Source: Candidatus Doudnabacteria bacterium (lineage in GTDB: Bacteria > Patescibacteriota > Doudnabacteria > UBA920 > O2-02-FULL-48-8). Taken from it: a stretch of DNA of 64,000 bases. Shown here piece by piece: positions 7,356 through 60,165 of the stretch. The notes beneath the pieces were generated by a model, which had not been told where the DNA came from, did not search any database, and worked only from the letters and a program-made list of their open reading frames with translations. The position numbers and the translations under genes are program-made. The stretch's first letter is position 1, and each line of letters starts with the position of its first letter. Where the stretch lies: assembly GCA_016199215.1 (NCBI GenBank), contig JACQHB010000006.1, forward strand, positions 3,642-67,641. The letters are read 5' to 3'.

Positions 7356-7658
7356 TTAATAAATTACCGCTAACGAAAGCCTTGCCCACTCTTTTAGCTT
7401 TACTAAATCATCAATGATCTCCGGGGGGACTTCGTAATAGTTTTTTAAAATCTGCTTTGGGCTTGGGGCGAAGGGTTTACTGCCAAAGGCTTCGTAATCC
7501 TTTCTTGTTTGCTCGTTTGTTTTGAAAAACAGCTGGTCTTGGTAGATTATCGCAAAAAACTTTCCGTCCAAATATAAGCCGTAGGCGTCGAACATGCGGC
7601 GGCCCTTGATGTTAAGACTTGAAAGTTGCTCAAGAATGTAAGACTCAAAAGAAGACAT
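7356..7658 (-). CDS. TfoX N-terminal-domain protein
   Basis: 100 aa. The RRMFDAYGLYLDGKFFAIIYQDQLFFKT pattern is typical of TfoX_N. Confidence 0.65.
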   Translation of the reverse strand: MSSFESYILEQLSSLNIKGRRMFDAYGLYLDGKFFAIIYQDQLFFKTNEQTRKDYEAFGSKPFAPSPKQILKNYYEVPPEIIDDLVKLKEWARLSLAVIY

Positions 7659-9596: not shown

Positions 9597-10145
9597 TTAC
9601 CTGACGAGTTGGATCTGCACAAAGACTAGATCAACAACCTCTTCAGGCGTCAGCTGGGTTGTGTCAACGCGGATTACCCGCTGGGTGTCGGATAGGGCAT
9701 TTTCGTATCCCTGTCGGACGAGATGGAATCTTCCTAGCATCCTGACGTCGCCTGGCGACATCTCCCGTTTCGCCATGCGTTCCCGTTGGACTTCTGGCGA
9801 TACCGTGAGATAGACAGTGGCGTCAGGCATGACGATGTTCCCGAAATCCCGAATGTCAGCCGCAACCCCCATGACGCGGTGGTATACGACGGTGGTCATC
9901 CAGTACCGATCGAGGACAACGTTTTGGAACTTCGAAACCTCGCGTATTTCGGCGGAAGCCTGCTGAACGACTCCGACGAAGTACCTGTAGTGGTCTTGGT
10001 CAGTGGCGCTGGCATTGATGCGGTTCTGTTCCTCCCGCATGTGTTCTGGCGGCGTTTTGTAAAGAATCGCGCCGAGCCTTCGAGCAAGCCGTGGACAAAC
10101 CTCACCCTTGCCGGCAAAGTCGATGCCCTCAACAGCGAGAATCAT
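9597..10145 (-). CDS. thymidylate/deoxynucleotide kinase-like P-loop protein
   Basis: 182 aa. ILAVEGIDFAGKG resembles the Tmk P-loop (EGxDGxGKT) but lacks the Thr/Ser after GKG. GC-rich. Followed by the terminator TGCCGG..CCGGCA plus a T-run at ~9545-9575. Confidence 0.6.
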   Translation of the reverse strand: MILAVEGIDFAGKGEVCPRLARRLGAILYKTPPEHMREEQNRINASATDQDHYRYFVGVVQQASAEIREVSKFQNVVLDRYWMTTVVYHRVMGVAADIRDFGNIVMPDATVYLTVSPEVQRERMAKREMSPGDVRMLGRFHLVRQGYENALSDTQRVIRVDTTQLTPEEVVDLVFVQIQLVR

Positions 10146-10630
10146 ACCACCTCCACTGGCATCCTGATCCGCTCAAGGGTGACTTGCTTCCGTTTCCCGC
10201 CAACATCGATCTTGACGCTGTGCCCCTCCTCCTTGCCGATAAACGGCTGGATAAGAGGGGCCAAATAGCTGATCACGGGGGGGCTTGCAGTTGGCTCAGA
10301 ATCTTCGAACCCGCCAACCAGATACTCTCTCAGCTCGCCCTCGATACTCACCAGGGCCATATGCCCGATCCGCAGCTTGTCAGTGCTTTCAGGCGGCTGA
10401 TCGATCACCACCATCTGCCCGATTTTCCGATTGACCTCGGCAATCTGGGCATTGATCATATCCTCGTCGCGCATGAGCTGCTCGAACGTGAAGTTGTCGT
10501 GCCAGACGTTGCCGCCGACTTCCGCGGCTTCGCCCTTCTGGCCCTGAGTCGCCTTCAGCTTATCCATAAGGTCGAGCTTCCGTCGATAGATCCTATCCGC
10601 GCCCTTGCGGGTAAAATACAGCTTTGACAC
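10142..10630 (-). CDS. GreA/GreB-family (Rnk-like) protein
   Basis: Start placed at GTG 10628-10630, 6 nt after AGGAGG. The sequence FTRKGADRIYRRKLDLMDKLK...GNVWHDNFTFEQL...KLRIGHMALV resembles a Gre-factor C-terminal-domain protein. It overlaps the downstream kinase-like gene by 4 nt. Confidence 0.55.
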   Translation of the reverse strand: MSKLYFTRKGADRIYRRKLDLMDKLKATQGQKGEAAEVGGNVWHDNFTFEQLMRDEDMINAQIAEVNRKIGQMVVIDQPPESTDKLRIGHMALVSIEGELREYLVGGFEDSEPTASPPVISYLAPLIQPFIGKEEGHSVKIDVGGKRKQVTLERIRMPVEVV

Positions 10631-10716
10631 TTGGTTCCTCCTATCGCAACCCTTTGAAAAAAAGCGGTCAATCGTTTCTGACTGGCCGCTCATCCTAACA
10701 CAAGCAAAGATTCTAG

Positions 10717-12048
10717 TCAATGCTGCACTTGCAGTTGGGATTGTAATTTCCTTAATGTTTCAATGTTAAAAAATTCAACTGCTCTCGGCGATTTAATTAT
10801 AGCGTCCAATGATTCAAAAGCCTGCTGTTTTGTCTGTTTTCTTAAAGCCAAAATCTGTTTACCGTCTTCTTCTGGACTATCGATAACTTGCCTTAAATAT
10901 CTGTTGTAATAATCTCGAGGAGCCACTGCGACATCTTCAATGCCAGACGGCAGTAGAATGGCGGCAGATTTTTTGCCAGCCTGAATAGACATCTGAAATA
11001 AATCGGTAAAATTTCCATATAAATAATGCTCCAAGCCCTCTCGTTCTTTCCACCCATTTATCAATCCTTGAAAACTTTTTGCGCTCCCGTCTTCTTGATT
11101 TAAACTAGCGAAAAAATCTTCCAAAGATTCATCAAAAAGCCGGTCGAAATCATCTGAATCGCCGCGGTAAACATCTCCATCATTGGAAGTATGTTTTTCG
11201 AAACGGCTTAAGTCAAGCTTATTACTGAGAGCATCCGAAACTGTAAATGTTACGGCTTTTAGTCCCGCGCTTTGGTCAATCCAATCCGCTCTTATCAAAT
11301 TAATTCCGTATTCATTGCTTTTAACATTCAAAAAATAGTCTCTCAGCATTAAATAATGCCTTTGAAGTTCTCGATGCAATCCGGCAGGGGCTGTTAGAGA
11401 AAAGTCTTGTCCATTTTCCTCGACTTTAAACTTATCCTTCTCATAAACCTTTGGTTCCGCGTTCAAAAACGCTTCTAAAAACCAGTTAGCAAACAGTTGC
11501 CAAGATCTTTTCTTATAATTAACTTTTTTATTGTTCCCGATTCCTTCACGCGGAGCCAAGACATCCCTGTATCCAACAACTCCTCCTGGCAAAAGAACTC
11601 TATTTAATTCCTGCAAAGTTTGCTCAATTGCCGGGCGGCCATATAAAATTGATGCTTCTTTTTTGTTTCCTGCTTTTGTGCCGTAAGAGCTGATTTCATG
11701 GAATATAGCCGATGCATTTACAGCGCTTAAAGAATTGTCCTCGAAAGGAAGATTTCCCGCATCAGCGGCCAATGATTCGACATTCGTTTCCTTTTTTAAA
11801 GACGCAGCTAAGCTGGGGATAATATCTACAGCGATTAGCTCTAAATTATCGATGCCGGCTGTATCTTGTTTTAATCTCCTTAAAGATTCTCCCCCGCCCG
11901 TGCCAAGCTCAACAATTATCATCTTGCCTTTGATATTTGTGGGCAGTTTGCCGCTTGCTATGGCATTACCTAAAATCTCTGTCTTTTCCTCCGAATTATT
12001 TCTTATTTGGGCCAGATAATCCCCTGATTCCTTTCCGTGATTTAACAT
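10717..12048 (-). CDS. class I SAM-dependent methyltransferase with a long uncharacterised C-terminal region
   Basis: 443 aa. Motif I is IIVELGTGGGESL. About 250 further residues have no motif I recognise. Confidence 0.7.
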   Translation of the reverse strand: MLNHGKESGDYLAQIRNNSEEKTEILGNAIASGKLPTNIKGKMIIVELGTGGGESLRRLKQDTAGIDNLELIAVDIIPSLAASLKKETNVESLAADAGNLPFEDNSLSAVNASAIFHEISSYGTKAGNKKEASILYGRPAIEQTLQELNRVLLPGGVVGYRDVLAPREGIGNNKKVNYKKRSWQLFANWFLEAFLNAEPKVYEKDKFKVEENGQDFSLTAPAGLHRELQRHYLMLRDYFLNVKSNEYGINLIRADWIDQSAGLKAVTFTVSDALSNKLDLSRFEKHTSNDGDVYRGDSDDFDRLFDESLEDFFASLNQEDGSAKSFQGLINGWKEREGLEHYLYGNFTDLFQMSIQAGKKSAAILLPSGIEDVAVAPRDYYNRYLRQVIDSPEEDGKQILALRKQTKQQAFESLDAIIKSPRAVEFFNIETLRKLQSQLQVQH

Positions 12049-12057
12049 ATATTTTAA

Positions 12058-12621
12058 TTACTCAAATTTATCAAACGTAAACCATTTCATGTTGCCAACA
12101 GGAATATTATACTTGTTTTCGATAATGATTCTAGCGTTTTCAAAAACAACTTCATTCCAATCAAGATCGAGTTGACTGGCAGCAGCTTTCAAATCTTCTT
12201 CGCTCTCCCCTTCCAATTCTACATATGTTGGTATCCTTGGCCATCTATCTATCTCAATAAGGACTCTTCCCAGCTTAAAAGTGTGCCTTAATTTTTGCTG
12301 ATGGCGATAAGCCATAAATCCAAGCCGTTCCAAAAAGTGTTCAGCCTTAACCATGTCTGAAACCTCAAACTCTATCTCCTCTGTCCCATCGGCTGTTTCA
12401 GATGCGTGATTCTTGTATGTTAAAAAGGCTTGATTTTTTTGCTTTCTTAAACGCACAAATTTTTTATCGTCCTGCCACCGAAGTCCTTTGTCATAAAAAA
12501 TTATCTCCTCCAGCAAATCCTCTCCCAAATCCTGCGCTCCCAAATCAGCCAACTTTTTAAGAAAAGGGCCTTTGTCGATTTCCAAAAAACGGACTTCTAC
12601 TTCCTTGTGGTGTTTGTTCAT
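12058..12621 (-). CDS. CYTH-domain (triphosphate tunnel metalloenzyme / class IV adenylate cyclase-like) protein
   Basis: The N-terminal EVEVRFLEI matches the ExExK-type CYTH signature. Start chosen at ATG 12619-12621; the track ORF extends to a GTG at 12660. The stop lies 9 nt before the methyltransferase start. Confidence 0.7.
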   Translation of the reverse strand: MNKHHKEVEVRFLEIDKGPFLKKLADLGAQDLGEDLLEEIIFYDKGLRWQDDKKFVRLRKQKNQAFLTYKNHASETADGTEEIEFEVSDMVKAEHFLERLGFMAYRHQQKLRHTFKLGRVLIEIDRWPRIPTYVELEGESEEDLKAAASQLDLDWNEVVFENARIIIENKYNIPVGNMKWFTFDKFE

Positions 12622-12699
12622 ATTCTTCTTAATCAAATCTAGGCAATAACATTTTGCCACTTTTATTCATTAAAAGCAAAAGAGTCCGAAAAGAAACTT

Positions 12700-12728
12700 T
12701 TGACTAGACTAGACTTAGAGATTACAAT
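12700..12728 (+). promoter_or_regulatory. sigma-70-type promoter TTGACT-17 nt-TACAAT
   Basis: TTGACT at 12700-12705, a 17-nt spacer, then TACAAT at 12723-12728. The predicted start at ~12735 coincides with the start of the structured region. Confidence 0.55.
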
Positions 12729-12731
12729 TTT

Positions 12732-12900
12732 GCCAGGCGAGTGTTGCCTGCCGTCAGAGTTTTGGGTCAAGCGGAGGACGAAAAACCCCGCACGAGGACC
12801 CGGTCAAAACCTCAATATGGGGATGAGGAGTGTCGTGGAACCGGGGCACCTGTTTAGGTGGAAACTCATCCAACTCCCTGACGGCTTTTTCTTTTTATTT
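12732..12900 (+). ncRNA. candidate structured small RNA or riboswitch-like leader, family unknown
   Basis: Helices read by eye: CAGGC(12734-38)/GCCTG(12746-50); CCGTCAG(12751-57)/CTGACGG(12878-84), which encloses GTTTTGGGTC(12759-68)/GACCC-GGT-CAAAAC(12797-810), GCGG(12771-74)/CCGC(12788-91), GGATGAG(12821-27)/CTCATCC(12865-71) and CACC(12847-50)/GGTG(12857-60). A U-tract (CTTTTTCTTTTTATTTTTTT) follows directly. The overlapping 79-aa track ORF starts at a TTG inside the -35 box. Confidence 0.5.
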
Positions 12901-13001
12901 TTTTGTTTCCCAAAGCCCCATGGACTGCATTTGTGCTAAAATCGTATTCATCCCTTGATTATAGAAAGGTAGAATATTTCTATAATCAACAAGGAGGGAA
13001 C

Positions 13002-13298
13002 ATGCCACTGATTCCCAGCTGGCCGTTTTGGACGCTTTCACTGACCGCAGGAGCGGTGTTCGGTTTCTGTTCAGCGATGATACATCATCCCATGTCCAAT
13101 CTACGGAATAACCTCCTGCTTGGACGTCGACAGCTCAGCTCTGTGATCGTGGCAGTCCTGCTGACAGCCGGAAGTTTGGAAGGCTACCTAATCTTCGCGG
13201 CAAGTTCTAGGCTGACCCAACCCATGATCCTTGCGGCAATCGCCGCCACGGTTATCGCGTCCTGGCTCACAGGAGTTCTTATGAACCGTAAGGCATGA
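13002..13298 (+). CDS. small membrane protein (98 aa), GC-rich
   Basis: ATG at 13002 follows AAGGAGGGAAC. Two to three hydrophobic segments. Followed by the terminator AACAGCGCGGAAC..GTTCCGCGCTGTT. Confidence 0.5.
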   Translation: MPLIPSWPFWTLSLTAGAVFGFCSAMIHHPMSNLRNNLLLGRRQLSSVIVAVLLTAGSLEGYLIFAASSRLTQPMILAAIAATVIASWLTGVLMNRKA

Positions 13299-13430
13299 GG
13301 AATTTCTAATTCAAAAAGGTCAGTGCACGATTTGTAAACAGCGCGGAACCTGTTCCGCGCTGTTCTTGTTTACTTTATCAACTTTTTTTCGACATTAATC
13401 GAATGCCCCGACAAAGTTATTTCAAATTGC

Positions 13431-13505
13431 TGGCTGGGGCGGTAGGATTCGAACCTACGAATGGGGGCTCCAAAGGCCCCTGCCTTACCACTTGGCTACG
13501 CCCCA
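13431..13505 (-). tRNA. tRNA-Gln (anticodon UUG), CCA encoded
   Basis: The reverse complement folds as a cloverleaf. The acceptor stem is TGGGGCG/CGCCCCA with U1-A72. The anticodon stem is GGGGC/GCCCC with loop CTTTGGA. The T arm is GTAGG-TTCGAAT-CCTAC, followed by G-CCA. Confidence 0.9.
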
Positions 13506-13559
13506 CCCAGCAACCGAAAATCATTTGAATTTTACTACTCCCCAATCAATAACAAAAAT

Positions 13560-15119
13560 CTATTTTTCCACTTCCCCGCCTAGGATTTTAAGCGCTGATT
13601 CCACGGGACTGCTCGCGTGCTCAATGTCTTTTGCAAGAACTGGCTTAACCATAACCTTTATGCCTGTAATTTCCTCAATCGCCTGGTCAATCACTATCCT
13701 GTTCTTGCGCTGGGCTATGGCGTCCTGATGGAACTTATAAGGAAACAGCAGGATCAATTCATTGCCTTCCAACGATTTAATGTTTGCCAGCTTCATGCTT
13801 GAGATAAGCGAATGGTTGTAGTCTTTGATTTTTTCAAGAACTTGCGGCCAGGCTTGCTTGATTTTCTCAAAATTTGATTGGTTGTCTAATGTCTGAATCT
13901 TCGCGAAATCCTGACGGAAGTCAGGATCTTTTTTTTGAGATTCTAAAACAAGTTCAGCATGTTCAGAATGACGAGGATTTATTTTTTTACTTTCTCCTGT
14001 TATCTCTACCACGGCCAGCTCCAGAGGCAGGCTCTGGACAGGGCTCGTCTTGAAATCATTGGCGGCTTTCTGGAAAACCTCGATAATTTGCCTTAATCGC
14101 TGCAGCGAAATTTGGGAAGCAATCTGTTCCAGCGATTGTTTGGTATGGTCCGTAAGGTCGCTTGAAGAAAAACTTCCCAGCTTCAAAAGCAAGACCCTGC
14201 GCAAGTACTCAAGAAAATCTTTCAAAAACTGGTATAAATCCACCCCGCCATAAACCAGTTTGTTCACAAAATCCAAACCCGCCTTGCTGTCGTTGTTTGA
14301 AAGGATGCCAAGAAATTCATTCACTGTCGCAGCACTGGTCAGTCCCAGCACCTGCTCAACCAAATCAGTGCTGATTTGGTTTGAACTGAAGCTTAATATC
14401 TGGTCAAGAAGCGACAAGCCGTCCCGGAAACTCCCATCCGCGGCCTGGGCAATCATAACCAAGGCCTCGTCGTCTGCTTTCGCCGAGAGGTCCGCTAGGA
14501 CTTTCCTAAGCAATTCCACGAGATCTTTGAGAGTAACTTTTTTGAAATCAAATCTTTGCGTGCGCGAGATAATGGTAGCCGGAACCTTGTGAACTTCCGT
14601 CGTGGCAAGAATAAAAATCGCGTGCTTGGGCGGCTCTTCCAAAGTCTTAAGCAGGGCGTTGAAAGCGCCTTTGGAAAGCATGTGGACCTCGTCAATGATA
14701 ATGACTTTGTATGAAGCGCTGGTCGGGGAAAATTTGAGATGATCAATGATTTCCCGGATGTTGTCCACTCCCGTATGGGAAGCCGCGTCAATTTCGAGCA
14801 GGTCGAGGGAGGAGGAGGCTTGAAACGATTTGCAAATCTCGCACTCGTTGCAAGGTTCGCCCGTCCGCCACGGCTCGTTTTCAGCTCCTGTTCGAGGCGT
14901 GCCGGGCGGGCCATTTTTTCCAACAGGACAATTGACCGCGCGCGCAAAAATCCTGGCTATTGTTGTTTTGCCCACGCCCCGAGGGCCGGTGAACAAATAA
15001 GCGTGCCCGGGCTTTTGGGCCGAGACCGCGTTAGCCAGCGTAGTTTTCACATGCTCCTGATTGATCACTTCCGCGAATTTCTGCGGGCGATATTTGCGAT
15101 AGAGAACAAGGTTAGACAT
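13560..15119 (-). CDS. dnaX: DNA polymerase III subunit gamma/tau
   Basis: YRKYRPQKF..., Walker A GPRGVGKTT, DEVHML, SRTQRF. Confidence 0.9.
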   Translation of the reverse strand: MSNLVLYRKYRPQKFAEVINQEHVKTTLANAVSAQKPGHAYLFTGPRGVGKTTIARIFARAVNCPVGKNGPPGTPRTGAENEPWRTGEPCNECEICKSFQASSSLDLLEIDAASHTGVDNIREIIDHLKFSPTSASYKVIIIDEVHMLSKGAFNALLKTLEEPPKHAIFILATTEVHKVPATIISRTQRFDFKKVTLKDLVELLRKVLADLSAKADDEALVMIAQAADGSFRDGLSLLDQILSFSSNQISTDLVEQVLGLTSAATVNEFLGILSNNDSKAGLDFVNKLVYGGVDLYQFLKDFLEYLRRVLLLKLGSFSSSDLTDHTKQSLEQIASQISLQRLRQIIEVFQKAANDFKTSPVQSLPLELAVVEITGESKKINPRHSEHAELVLESQKKDPDFRQDFAKIQTLDNQSNFEKIKQAWPQVLEKIKDYNHSLISSMKLANIKSLEGNELILLFPYKFHQDAIAQRKNRIVIDQAIEEITGIKVMVKPVLAKDIEHASSPVESALKILGGEVEK

Positions 15120-16372: not shown

Positions 16373-16508
16373 ATTGGTTTATATTTTGCTAACTAATATT
16401 AGCAATTATCCACAAGGGATCAATCGGTAAATTAACTAATTTGATATTTGTTTCTTGCTGTTTTTAACTTAAAACTATAATAGCAGAAGAATGGAAAATT
16501 TGCAATTG

Positions 16509-16709
16509 CTAATTTTTGTCATCGTCGGAAATCAAATTTTTGACCCAGGCAACAAAAACCTGCAACCCGTGCAGGAAGCTGCCGTCTGAGGGCTCTTCCA
16601 AAAGTTCAGCCCCTCGGATCAAGTCATCCTCAACTTCGGATTTTGACTCTAAAGATCGCCCGGCCTGCGCCTCACCTTTTTCCAGTTCTAAACTTTCATT
16701 GGGATTCAT
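16509..16709 (-). CDS. small acidic hypothetical protein (66 aa)
   Basis: ORF whose ATG lies inside the left inverted repeat of the 16708-16813 element. Coding status is uncertain. Confidence 0.3.
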   Translation of the reverse strand: MNPNESLELEKGEAQAGRSLESKSEVEDDLIRGAELLEEPSDGSFLHGLQVFVAWVKNLISDDDKN

Positions 16710-16813
16710 CCCGTTAGAAATTGCACTTAGTTAATTTTTTCCGCATATTTATAATCATCGCTTTAAAGTATAATATATTCACTAAATCCGCTACTCAATA
16801 TTTCTAACGGGAT
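16708..16813. repeat. 106-bp element bounded by 14-bp perfect inverted repeats ATCCCGTTAGAAAT / ATTTCTAACGGGAT
   Basis: IRs at 16708-16721 and 16800-16813. The left end CATCCCGTTAGAAATTGCAC is identical to the left end of the 38500-38606 element. Confidence 0.75.
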
Positions 16814-16816
16814 TCA

Positions 16817-17366: not shown

Positions 17367-19910
17367 CTAAAAAGTTCTTTCAGTACTAATTGGCCCAGTA
17401 ACAGCCGGCGCTCCGAGTCTGGTGCGATCCAAAATCTCCCGCTCAACATCTTTTTTCGGCCTGCCAAATTTGAGCCTGGACAAATTGCGCACGATCCCTG
17501 CCAGTTCCAAACTGCCCCCGGGAGGCTTGGGATAAGTCTGCATATTAAACGGCCTCGAGGCTGTTCCTTTCACCATAAGCTTCACATAAGCGTTGTACCG
17601 CTCGATATTCACCAAATCAAATTCATTAAACACCGGAGCAAATTCTTTGGCCATGATTTCGGCATCCTCAACACCGATCCGGAAGCAGATCATACTGCCG
17701 GCATTGCCGAATACCGCGTCGCGCATCCTTGAGTCCATTGCCGAACTGCCTTCTTTTTCCACGCTTAGCTGGGACAAAAACTGGTGGGCCATGATCAGGT
17801 TTAGCCGGTACTTTCTTGCCTCGGACAAAATCGTGGCAAAACTGTCAGTGACAAAATTCTGGAACTCATCCACATACAGGTAGAAGTCGCGGCGGTTTTC
17901 TTCCGGAATGTCGGAGCGGGACAAAGCCGCCATCTGAAGTTTGGAGACTATAATCAGGCCAAGCAGCTTGGCATTGACCTCGCCGGTTTTTCCTTTTGAC
18001 AAATTGATCAGCAGGATTTTGCCCTGATCCATCACCTCCCTGAAATCAAACGAACTTGTCGGCTGGCCGATAATGTTTCTCATCATTTCGTTTTCCACAA
18101 ACCTGCCGACTTTGGAAATCAGGTACCCCAGCATTTCAGATTTGTGAAAGTCCGAAGTTTTGGCCATTTCTTTTTCCCAAAACGAGCGGACAATCGGATC
18201 TTTGACCTTGGACAGCTTGTATTTCTGAAAATCCGTGTCAGTGAACATCCTCGGGATGTCCGCGATCGTGCCGGGATACTGTTTGTCTTCCATCAGTGTA
18301 AGCATGACATTGCGCATATTATGCTCAAACATAGGCCCGATCATTTCCGGCGGAAACAGCTTGTAGAAAATCGCGATCATTTCCTGGATCGCAAAATCTT
18401 TTTGTTCCGGACCCTTGACCTGGAGCATATTTAATCCAACCGGCCGCTCGGTGTCAAACGGCTCAAACAAAATCACGTCGTCGGCCCGCTCTTTGGGAAT
18501 GTATTGCAGAACATCTTCCACAAAATCGCCGTGCGGATCCACGATGCATAACCCTTCGCCGTTGCGGATATCCTGAATCGCCATGTTTTTCATAAGTTCC
18601 GTTTTGCCAGTGCCCGTGCGCCCGATGATGTATTTGTGCCTTCTCCTGTCATCCGCCTGAATGAAAATTTTGGTCTCAACCCCTCGGTAAACGCTTCGAC
18701 CCAATAGCATGCCGGAGTCCGGCAGGGTTGGGGGCGGAGCCGCTTTTTTCGCGTGCAACCATTTAATATTCGGAGTTTCGGTAAATTTGGTCGGCGGATG
18801 CCAGATGCTTGAAAGCTCTTCGGTGTTCAAAATCGCGGAAGTGTTGCGGAAAACCCGAAAAATGTAATCAACGATAATCTTATTAGTTTTCCGTTTAATC
18901 ACGCGCAGGCCGTTGAACGGGGGCATGGAGTACTGCATAAACGACGCCATGATGCTGCGAATATTGGTGTCGGCCGCTTCCTGCGAAGTGCTTGAAGTTA
19001 CAACGCGCAAATTGAATTTGTACCCGGGCCGTGACGCTTTTTCCTCAAACCTCTTTACCATCTCCTGCTGCATGGGAGTTAAGTGTATGGGTTTATACAT
19101 CCCGGAGGGATCGTAGTGCCCCGGCTGCATTTGAGGTTTGTTTTTTTCAAAAAACAATTCGTTGAACGCCATGCCGGTCCACTTGAACAACCCGTTGAAA
19201 AATTTTTCAAGCGGTGATGCCGTTACGAGCCCGGGATTACGGCCCTGCTGGATTTCAAGCGCGTATCTTCTGGGCTTGCTTTGCCAGCCTACTTGAGCCG
19301 GACTGATCAGAAGCTGAATTGCCGCCCCTTCGCCTTGGCCAAGCTTGGAAAGGCTGTTGGTTAAGGAGTTGATCGGATCCGACTCCATATTTTTGTAAGT
19401 GCGCAAGGGAAAAACATATTTTTTTTGCAAAGTTAATTCAGCCGCGGCCACAAAAGATTCGGAAGTAAAAATATTATAAGGCTTCACCTGGTCGATCTGG
19501 GCTTTGGGATATTGCGCGTGAAGCTGTTTTTCGACCAAAGATTGCAGTCTTTTCGGCACATTCAGAAAAAAAGAAATTTTCTTGCCGACCGCGCCCATTT
19601 CCAGGCTTATATAATCATTGATCCCAAAAATGGACTTGACGTTATAATCCTGGGACGCCTGCATGATAGTGGCAAAAAACTGTTCGGCGATGCCAATCAT
19701 TTCTTTTTCCTGTTTTTGCGGATCCTTTTCCGCGTCCGCGTTTTCTTTGGGCACGGAAACTTCCAAAAAAACAGAATCCAGAATTCTGGGGCCCCAGCTC
19801 TTCTTTCTCAGATTTTCCGAAATCAGGAAATACAAAAGCAATCCTGTCAGCCCTAAAATGGCTATTAGGATCAGCCAAAAAACTACAAATGTTCCGTTTA
19901 ACAAGTCCAC
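17367..19910 (-). CDS. membrane-anchored P-loop ATPase, VirD4/TraD coupling-protein-like or HerA-like
   Basis: 847 aa with an N-terminal TM (VVFWLILIAILGLTGLLLYFLI). Walker A is IIGRTGTGKT, followed by CIVDPHGDF. Walker B-like FYLYVDEFQNF. Also ARKYRLNLIMAHQFLSQL. Confidence 0.7.
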   Translation of the reverse strand: MDLLNGTFVVFWLILIAILGLTGLLLYFLISENLRKKSWGPRILDSVFLEVSVPKENADAEKDPQKQEKEMIGIAEQFFATIMQASQDYNVKSIFGINDYISLEMGAVGKKISFFLNVPKRLQSLVEKQLHAQYPKAQIDQVKPYNIFTSESFVAAAELTLQKKYVFPLRTYKNMESDPINSLTNSLSKLGQGEGAAIQLLISPAQVGWQSKPRRYALEIQQGRNPGLVTASPLEKFFNGLFKWTGMAFNELFFEKNKPQMQPGHYDPSGMYKPIHLTPMQQEMVKRFEEKASRPGYKFNLRVVTSSTSQEAADTNIRSIMASFMQYSMPPFNGLRVIKRKTNKIIVDYIFRVFRNTSAILNTEELSSIWHPPTKFTETPNIKWLHAKKAAPPPTLPDSGMLLGRSVYRGVETKIFIQADDRRRHKYIIGRTGTGKTELMKNMAIQDIRNGEGLCIVDPHGDFVEDVLQYIPKERADDVILFEPFDTERPVGLNMLQVKGPEQKDFAIQEMIAIFYKLFPPEMIGPMFEHNMRNVMLTLMEDKQYPGTIADIPRMFTDTDFQKYKLSKVKDPIVRSFWEKEMAKTSDFHKSEMLGYLISKVGRFVENEMMRNIIGQPTSSFDFREVMDQGKILLINLSKGKTGEVNAKLLGLIIVSKLQMAALSRSDIPEENRRDFYLYVDEFQNFVTDSFATILSEARKYRLNLIMAHQFLSQLSVEKEGSSAMDSRMRDAVFGNAGSMICFRIGVEDAEIMAKEFAPVFNEFDLVNIERYNAYVKLMVKGTASRPFNMQTYPKPPGGSLELAGIVRNLSRLKFGRPKKDVEREILDRTRLGAPAVTGPISTERTF

Positions 19911-20068: not shown

Positions 20069-20443
20069 TTAGGCTGATTTTTTTTGTTCTTCTGTTTCGT
20101 CTCCTTCAACATTTGAACCCAAAAAGTCCACAGCATTGCTATAGTCATCACCCAATTGAGCCATTACTTCGTCCAAGCTTCGGCCCTGCTGCAAAAACAA
20201 ATTAGCCTTGTTACGAACCGCTCTGTCCGTAAGCTTTTCTGCTTCGGCTTTTTTGGCCGGTTGATTAAGCCGCTCCTTAATATCAGGAAAATTCACAACT
20301 TCACTTGGAATTTCTGGTTTAACATCGGGCGCGCGAAAACCAGGCGCTGTCTTCTCTTTTTCTGACAGCACTTCCCCGGCCTGTTCCCGGGCTTGTTCCT
20401 GCTGGGCCAATCTGGCTCTTTGTTCTTCAGTCAATTCTTGCAT
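20069..20443 (-). CDS. hypothetical acidic protein (124 aa)
   Basis: Intact ORF of low complexity (Q/E/A-rich). Confidence 0.45.
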   Translation of the reverse strand: MQELTEEQRARLAQQEQAREQAGEVLSEKEKTAPGFRAPDVKPEIPSEVVNFPDIKERLNQPAKKAEAEKLTDRAVRNKANLFLQQGRSLDEVMAQLGDDYSNAVDFLGSNVEGDETEEQKKSA

Positions 20444-20486
20444 AACGGATGATTATATATTAATTCCCGGGTCCGGTCAAGGATAA

Positions 20487-43669: not shown

Positions 43670-43811
43670 GGCCGTATCCTCCTTAGATTGTCCGGTTTGC
43701 CCGCCGGACTTTGTCGGGGTTGTCTCCAAACTAGACTCGAAATTATTCACTTGCTTACGGGCCCGTAAGCAAGTGTCCAAATCCCAATCTTATTTTTATT
43801 AATAATATACA

Positions 43812-43841
43812 ATTTTACTCCTTTTTTGACAAAATTGTCAA
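43812..43841 (-). promoter_or_regulatory. second copy of the same promoter cassette (TTGACA-18 nt-TAAAAT)
   Basis: The plus strand TACTCCTTTTTTGACAAAATTGTCAA matches 42805-42830 apart from one extra T. Confidence 0.6.
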
Positions 43842-54404: not shown

Positions 54405-54544
54405 GTCTTTTGACTTTTCCCCTTTTAACTTTTTCGCTTTTCATTATACCATAAATTGCCAGCGTTGACAAAAAAAACAAAATTAGCTCCTATTCCCTTC
54501 TTCCCTTCCCTTCAAACTCCAGCATTAAAAATTAAGCGAGCGAT

Positions 54545-55124: not shown

Positions 55125-55217
55125 GCTATATCTTTATCCTAAAAGATCCCCTTGCCGGGGACCAACCGTTAATAGTGAAGCAATACTAATCGAAAACCGT
55201 GCTTTTGTCAACACCCT

Positions 55218-60068: not shown

Positions 60069-60165
60069 TGTCGAATAATTACTGAAAAGGAATTGTTTTT
60101 ATATTTATTTTTTGACTCAGTATTTTTCTAAATTGTAATTTAAATCTAATTGATTGTAAAACTAG

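Follow-up and report, generated by a model that had tools for sequence, protein, structure and literature searches.

Between the CYTH gene block and the tRNA-Gln-dnaX pair of this Doudnabacteria genome lies a GC-rich segment with a promoter in front and a run of T residues behind, which raises the question of whether it encodes an RNA, and of what kind. The segment is considered here within the window, the whole 64-kb stretch of DNA that was analysed (Table 1). All sequence motifs listed in an earlier, sequence-only reading were found in place, and the promoter-to-terminator unit that it proposed is plausible as a promoter-to-U-tract unit on the + strand. That reading left two options, an independent sRNA or a terminator-type riboswitch or leader. 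The best explanation, which we hold tentatively and as somewhat short of probable, is the first: a stand-alone, lineage-specific sRNA gene of ~155-170 nt on the + strand, whose end-closing helix (P1) would double as an intrinsic terminator. From sequence signals and fold energetics we infer that the candidate RNA would be transcribed and terminated, and that it may have a function. Elsewhere in the window, two genes are competence- or DNA-transfer-related, one for a TraG/TrwB-type coupling-protein-like ATPase of 847 aa (17367-19910) and one for a TfoX N-domain protein (7356-7658); neither has an evident link to the candidate RNA.

Table 1. Positions in the window of the candidate RNA, its predicted parts and the neighbouring genes and signals
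Feature	Position	Strand	Remarks
Thymidylate kinase	9597-10145	-	
GreA-like protein	10142-10720	-	
SAM methyltransferase	10717-12048	-	
CYTH / class IV adenylate cyclase-like protein	12058-12621	-	
Sigma-70-type promoter, TTGACT-17-TACAAT	12700-12728	+	10/12 consensus match
-35 box TTGACT	12700-12705	+	followed by 17-nt spacer
-10 box TACAAT	12723-12728	+	
Candidate RNA	12735 to about 12895	+	
5' hairpin, CAGGC-GAGUGUU-GCCUG	12734-12750	+	pair probabilities 0.92-1.0; variant in the minimum free energy (MFE) fold, AGGCGA/UUGCCU
P1, 5' strand, GCCGUCAG	12750-12757	+	pair probabilities 0.86-1.0
GTTTTGGGTC; GACCC; CAAAAC	12759-12768; 12797-12801; 12805-12810	+	
Arm 1, UUGGGUC/GACCCGG	12762-12803	+	probabilities 0.85-0.99; stable from prefix 12808 on
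Arm 1 inner hairpin, GCGG(A)GG-ACGAAAAA-CCCCGC	12771-12791	+	
GCGG with CCGC	12771-12774; 12788-12791	+	
CCCCG; CGGGG	12786-12790; 12842-12846	+	
Small hairpin, CCUCA-AUA-UGGGG	12810-12822	+	in MFE fold; competes with P3 of the sequence-only reading
GGATGAG with CTCATCC	12821-12827; 12865-12871	+	
Arm 2	12821-12877	+	two competing closures
CACC with GGTG	12847-12850; 12857-12860	+	
Arm 2 apical hairpin, CACCU-GUUU-AGGUG	12847-12860	+	
P1, 3' strand, CUGACGGC	12878-12885	+	directly abuts U-tract
U-rich tract, U5CU5AU7GU3	12886-12908	+	20 T in 24 bases; presumed terminator tail
Candidate extended -10 element, TGCTAAAAT	12934-12942	+	no -35 box; read by eye
Perfect palindrome, TTGATTATAGAAA-N9-TTTCTATAATCAA	12955-12989		13-bp arms; ends one base before SD of 98-aa ORF
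98-aa ORF	13002-13298	+	3-4 hydrophobic helices; ATG 13002; SD AAGGAGGG at 12991-12998
Strong hairpin terminator	13337-13364	+	12 bp; 3' of 98-aa ORF
tRNA-Gln(UUG)	13431-13505	-	
dnaX	13560-15119	-	

The near-consensus promoter described in the sequence-only reading is present and is the sole + strand site of its quality within 12000-14000. Sites that match the consensus in at least 10 of 12 positions number 28 on both strands of the window. Non-coding DNA, which makes up 9% of the window, holds 15 of them, so that sigma-70-like sites of such quality are ~6-fold enriched there. Most of these non-coding sites precede a gene, with a predicted transcription start 2-110 nt from the start codon. 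For the promoter at 12700-12728, transcription is predicted to start at about A12735, and the next start codon (ATG 13002) follows 267 nt later, far beyond the other 5' UTRs in the window. Because the comparable promoters start so close to a start codon, something else fills the 267 nt. At the sequence level, a consensus promoter in intergenic DNA directly 5' of a structured body points to an sRNA gene, and the promoter is a credible one for the candidate RNA. Its quality, the enrichment of its class in non-coding DNA and the gap to the ATG all favour a stand-alone sRNA; the length of the gap is also an argument for a 5' leader of the 98-aa ORF, which is taken up below.

Near-consensus sigma-70 promoters of the window usually lie 2-57 nt from start codons. 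Examples on the - strand are found at 20452-20480, 43804-43841, 54443-54471, 55183-55211, and 60132-60160. From the promoter at 20452-20480, the gene at 20069-20443 would be transcribed into an essentially leaderless mRNA.

The gap could also be filled by a small protein, encoded either by a 79-aa ORF with a TTG start or by a 34-aa ORF with a GUG start at 12835. The frame is open from 12700 to 12939, and the GUG has an SD-like GAGGAG 4 nt in front of it. However, the 79-aa ORF (12700-12939) has no homologue even at E ≤ 10, its coding score of -0.125 falls within the off-frame range, and its TTG start sits inside the -35 box with no SD, while the T-tract would be read as poly-Phe. The earlier view of this ORF as spurious is therefore upheld, and a small protein is the least probable of the explanations considered here. 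The 34-codon frame at 12835-12939, which reads the T-tract as FFFLFFCF, is almost certainly fortuitous and would matter if the terminator were read through. That no protein-coding alternative emerges speaks for the sRNA.

The composition of the segment sets it apart from its surroundings. The 120 nt from 12731 have a GC content of 0.60, the highest among all intergenic regions, next to 0.57 for the tRNA region and ~45% for the whole window; this top position, alongside the tRNA region, is consistent with an sRNA gene. A second GC-rich island, at 16557 in the 444-nt gap 16373-16816, is explained not by an RNA but by a - strand ORF of 66 aa that had not been called (roughly 16515-16715). The same gap holds a near-consensus TATAAT region around 16740-16775.

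Fold strength gives a more divided picture. The MFE of the + strand is -58.8 kcal/mol, dinucleotide shuffles average -54, and the resulting z is -1.2. Across shuffle sets with G-U pairs allowed, z ranges from -1.2 to -1.8 (-1.4 to -1.8 in the second set), which counts against the sRNA. The + strand is rich in G and U, and its shuffles therefore pick up numerous G-U pairs. When pairing is restricted to Watson-Crick, z amounts to -2.6 to -2.9 for the + strand and to about -3.5 for the - strand, and no more than 1 of 300 shuffles folds equally well. The DNA is therefore self-complementary beyond its composition, which favours the sRNA. The description of the RNA as highly structured thus has to be tempered to moderately structured, given the weak z with G-U pairs and the better Watson-Crick-only values.

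These values also bear on the idea that the opposite strand gives rise to a functional RNA, which might be, for instance, the leader of the CYTH-methyltransferase operon. The - strand is equally able to fold (-59.6 kcal/mol), has the better z (-3.1 to -3.6 with G-U pairs allowed), and has CYTH downstream. However, the better z reflects composition, as C/A-rich shuffles fold worse, and the Watson-Crick-only scores of the two strands are similar. No promoter was found upstream on that strand, at 12890-13000. Read by eye, the stretch that separates the structure from CYTH holds a plausible promoter for this gene, and the relatives carry 91-490 nt of unrelated sequence upstream of CYTH. As judged from their sequence, the promoter and the T-tract fit the + strand only. 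An RNA from the - strand is accordingly very improbable. Conversely, the room that CYTH has for its own promoter, and the lack of any such leader upstream of CYTH in relatives, support a + strand sRNA.

The predicted structure of the candidate RNA is built from a few probable helices. In the Boltzmann ensemble these are the 5' hairpin, P1, GGGUC/GACCC, GCGG/CCGC, and CACC/GGUG (0.64-1.0); GGGUC/GACCC gains two U-G pairs, and GCGG/CCGC gains GG/CC. The 5' hairpin is the first to form in prefix folds. The closing helix, first drawn as CCGTCAG/CTGACGG (12751-57/12878-84), is present and extends to a perfect 8 bp. By our own arithmetic, the chance of finding a perfect complement to an 8-mer within ~130 nt is roughly 0.002-0.01. 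The two sides of P1 belong to an inverted repeat (I12) with 16-nt arms that are 81% complementary.

Inside P1, the helices of the sequence-only reading fare unevenly. In its first sub-domain, GGGUC/GACCC and the inner GCGG/CCGC are favoured, but the added GUUUU/AAAAC pairing has a probability of 0.0. In its second, the CACC/GGUG hairpin is probable, but GGAUGAG/CUCAUCC reaches only 0.16. The latter is one of two closures of arm 2 (12821-27/12865-71) and is outcompeted by the other, GGAGU/ACUCC (12828-32/12873-77), which occurs in the MFE fold and stacks on P1, as well as by the small CCUCA/UGGGG hairpin. A further pairing between the domains, CCCCG/CGGGG, had been suggested as an addition; three of its bases are already used by the 3' strand of GCGG/CCGC, so that it is an alternative to that helix and does not add to it. 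The full structure proposed earlier has an energy of -44.6 kcal/mol, compared with -58.8 kcal/mol for the MFE fold.

Downstream of P1, the long U-tract follows directly, as had been noted, with U5CU5AU7 abutting the helix. Only five comparably T-rich tracts occur in 128 kb, that is, on both strands of the window. A perfect P1 with high pair probabilities, followed at once by such a rare tract, speaks for the sRNA. A course of events can be proposed from these signals. RNA polymerase would start near A12735, and the 5' hairpin would form first in the nascent RNA, followed by the stable arm at 12762-12803, the small hairpin, and the second arm. When the 3' strand of P1 emerges, it would pair with the 5' strand to give an 8-bp GC-rich helix. 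Lying directly against U5CU5AU7, this closing helix would act as an intrinsic terminator and release the RNA.

Prefix folds are consistent with this sequence of steps. The 5' strand of P1 stays largely unpaired until its partner emerges, and when the 3' strand is added the MFE drops from -45.9 to -58.7 kcal/mol, a gain of ~13 kcal/mol. No antiterminator and no rival partner for either P1 strand appears in the prefix folds, and no second complement of GCCGUCAG or CUGACGGC was found on reading the local sequence. The lack of a competing helix implies constitutive termination and not a switch; together with the energy gain, it argues for an sRNA. The geometry is the weaker side of this reading. 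P1 is an 8-bp stem in front of the U-tract but spans ~120 nt, which is atypical among intrinsic terminators, and a terminator scan with loops of 3-8 nt makes no call. In addition, relative to a possible promoter further downstream the T-tract occupies -41 to -64, where an UP element would be expected, and it could serve the next gene in that capacity instead of being a terminator.

That next gene is the 98-aa ORF, and its status is borderline. A good SD, an ATG, hydrophobic helices, and a terminator speak for a real gene; a low coding score and an unconfident AlphaFold2 model speak against it. The coding score, 0.026, falls short of all true-gene windows (minimum 0.048) and lies at the upper end of the off-frame values, with the frame being the best of the six. 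The AlphaFold2 model (pLDDT 58.8, pTM 0.32) is not good enough to be used in a fold search. The ORF found only itself among 5.8 billion clustered proteins, and the same was true of an exhaustive HMMER search of 1.84 billion representatives. It has no match in NCBIfam, PHROGs, or PADLOC.

How this ORF would be expressed bears on whether the candidate RNA belongs to it. TATAAT at 12981-86 had been taken as the ORF's own promoter. That assignment is not sustained: a start from it would fall inside the SD, and it is part of the perfect palindrome at 12955-12989, so that it is unlikely to be a -10 box. The palindrome is the only one of its kind in the window (0 expected by chance), and its sequence suggests that it may be the operator of a dimeric regulator or a hairpin in the 5' UTR and not a -10 box. 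No canonical -35/-10 pair was found between the candidate RNA and the ORF. The element at 12934-42 is possibly the ORF's own promoter, with the T-tract at UP-element distance. The alternative route is read-through from the 12700 promoter, which keeps the leader hypothesis alive.

Under that hypothesis, the candidate RNA would be a cis-acting 5' leader of the 98-aa ORF, similar to an attenuator or riboswitch, in a single unit running from the 12700 promoter to the terminator at 13337-64, and the fraction of polymerase that gets as far as the ORF would be set by the P1/U-tract terminator. The RNA is oriented like the ORF, with 117 nt from the end of P1 (12885) to the ATG; no canonical -35/-10 pair was found between them, and a start from TATAAT would fall inside the SD. 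RNA and ORF are both orphan, GC-rich, and adjacent, which suggests one unit. However, with no antiterminator or alternative partner, P1 forms by default. No known riboswitch or leader family matches, and the element was found nowhere else, whereas riboswitch aptamers are normally widely conserved. The element at 12934-42, with the T-tract as UP element, could drive the ORF alone, and the ORF is itself of borderline coding status. Of the two options in the sequence-only reading, the leader thus ranks behind the sRNA, as possible but rather unlikely. A more specific version would be a new, narrowly distributed CPR regulatory leader that dispenses with a separate expression platform and uses the closing helix of its sensing domain as terminator stem. 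The two-arm core would be opened or locked by a ligand or protein, and transcription into the orphan membrane protein would be gated in this way; we regard this version as improbable.

The stand-alone sRNA, in turn, cannot be assigned to a family. A scan against Rfam 15 at gathering thresholds found only tRNA-Gln in the window, in agreement with the earlier failure to match any known family. At E ≤ 10, 12600-13050 on both strands gave four implausible matches of 11-20 bits, compared with thresholds of 35-55, and none of them overlaps the structure meaningfully. SRP, 6S, tmRNA, RNase P, riboswitches, T-boxes, and ribozymes are not among these matches. Comparison by eye with the cores of SRP domain IV, 6S, T-box, glycine, yybP-ykoY, ZTP, TPP, and cobalamin RNAs yielded no resemblance that held.

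Among known systems, a generic bacterial sRNA gene offers several likenesses: an intergenic promoter, a 5' hairpin at the predicted start, a GC-rich body, a 3' U-tract, and a length of ~160 nt. Unlike such genes, the candidate has a long-range helix around a ~120-nt multibranch before its U-tract in place of a local hairpin, and it has no identified Hfq-type seed or target and no conservation that could be found. Terminating riboswitch or attenuator leaders, of the Term-seq type, share with it a P1-like closed domain and a terminator 5' of a co-oriented membrane ORF, but the candidate has no antiterminator, no Rfam match, no ORF family, and no conservation. 6S RNA, small SRP RNA, and Y RNA are of a similar size class and also have their ends paired in a closing helix. 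The candidate is multibranched, whereas these RNAs are rod-like, and it matches none of them in Rfam even at E ≤ 10. In many Firmicutes, the SRP RNA gene adjoins dnaX. The candidate differs from a dnaX-linked SRP RNA in that it lies downstream of dnaX, in convergent orientation, and it is missing beside the dnaX of relatives.

Pairing with a nearby transcript was considered as well. A type I toxin-antitoxin arrangement is not supported, as the RNA shows no complementarity to the mRNA of the ORF and 98 aa is too long. No inverted repeat links 12734-12886 to 12945-13370, and the duplex of the RNA with the 5' region of the ORF is no better than that of 93 of 200 shuffles in RNAduplex, which is crude on long inputs. 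No antisense target was found nearby. Because there is neither an antiterminator nor a nearby antisense target, the default guess is that the candidate RNA acts in trans or binds a protein.

Conservation was sought on both sides of the locus. On the dnaX side, 80 dnaX loci from GTDB genomes were searched with blastn and nhmmer. For dnaX, the best relatives come from MAGs of Doudnabacteria and Patescibacteria (53-59% identity), and the nearest sequenced relatives are distant, at no more than 70% identity in CYTH. None of the 80 loci gave a match to the candidate RNA beside dnaX, and Rfam found nothing but tRNAs in the 12 closest. By tblastn, only the GtrA side of dnaX is syntenic, with GtrA kept upstream of dnaX in many relatives. 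The dnaX-tRNA-Gln pair is kept in some (L003, L007), and the sequence beyond the tRNA differs. An island at the 3' end of the tRNA was rejected, as no att-like repeat of tRNA-Gln was found.

On the CYTH side, 13 loci were collected, of which L081-L086 were compared by blastn, nhmmer, and a covariance model and L088-L093 were judged by gene layout only. The CYTH-methyltransferase-GreA-Tmk block is kept in all 13, with a different upstream neighbour each time, such as tRNA-Lys (L084/L085) or a Y1 transposase (L085/L086). The candidate RNA is absent from the loci compared, whose upstream regions are unrelated, too short, or rearranged. In L084, the sequence upstream of CYTH was read by eye as tRNA-like fragments.

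Wider searches gave the same outcome. When run on the window and on 27 Patescibacteria loci beside dnaX or CYTH, a single-sequence covariance model (R1) matched only itself. blastn against phages and plasmids returned noise only, two exact-word scans of viral contigs had 0 matches, and one metagenome scan with a stem-tolerant loop pattern gave a single chance match, of the pattern only and inside a coding region. With no homologue found, the candidate RNA has no covariation support, and its absence from the dnaX and CYTH loci, phages, plasmids, and viral and metagenome scans weighs against the sRNA.

Absence in relatives that keep both flanking genes had been put forward as grounds for giving up the RNA. 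The RNA is indeed missing beside either flank, but the comparison is not a clean one, as no relative keeps the flanks adjacent, and its absence is established at syntenic positions only. The region 12622-13430 is a synteny breakpoint, with dnaX-tRNA-Gln and CYTH-MTase-GreA-Tmk adjacent only in this window. The RNA and the 98-aa ORF would thus be a lineage-specific insert at this breakpoint.

Such a position raises the prospect that the segment is functionless filler at a rearrangement junction, either a MITE-like element or the decayed remains of foreign or mobile DNA, with signals that would be fortuitous or would produce only transcriptional noise. It is missing from all relatives examined, even though both flanking blocks are conserved separately, and the neighbours of the locus differ in every relative. 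The 16-nt imperfect inverted termini (I12), the weak + strand z, and the atypical coding score of the neighbouring ORF fit filler as well. A MITE- or REP-like repeat would resemble the segment in its ~136-bp unit, its terminal inverted repeats, its variable locus, and its orphan distribution. However, the segment differs from such repeats in being single-copy in the 64-kb window, in having no target-site duplication beside the inverted termini when read by eye, and in its well-placed promoter and terminator signals. A promoter, structure at the predicted start, an 8-bp helix, and a top-five T-tract are jointly unlikely by chance, and CPR genomes are compact and rarely retain filler DNA. Filler is therefore conceivable, though we consider it rather unlikely, and it is unlikely that the combination of signals at 12700-12908 is pure chance.

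The stand-alone sRNA remains the preferred reading of the locus. The candidate belongs to no known family, and because nothing comparable was found elsewhere, it can neither be called a new RNA class nor be set aside. It is confined to one MAG, and its value is that of a flagged locus for transcript mapping, not of a discovery. To our knowledge, next to nothing is known of the regulatory RNAs of Patescibacteria/CPR, and a text search of a literature collection found no description of sRNAs or natural riboswitches in this group. If verified, an sRNA that is terminated by its closing helix would add modestly to the map of CPR regulatory RNAs and would offer a handle for expression tools in Patescibacteria/CPR.
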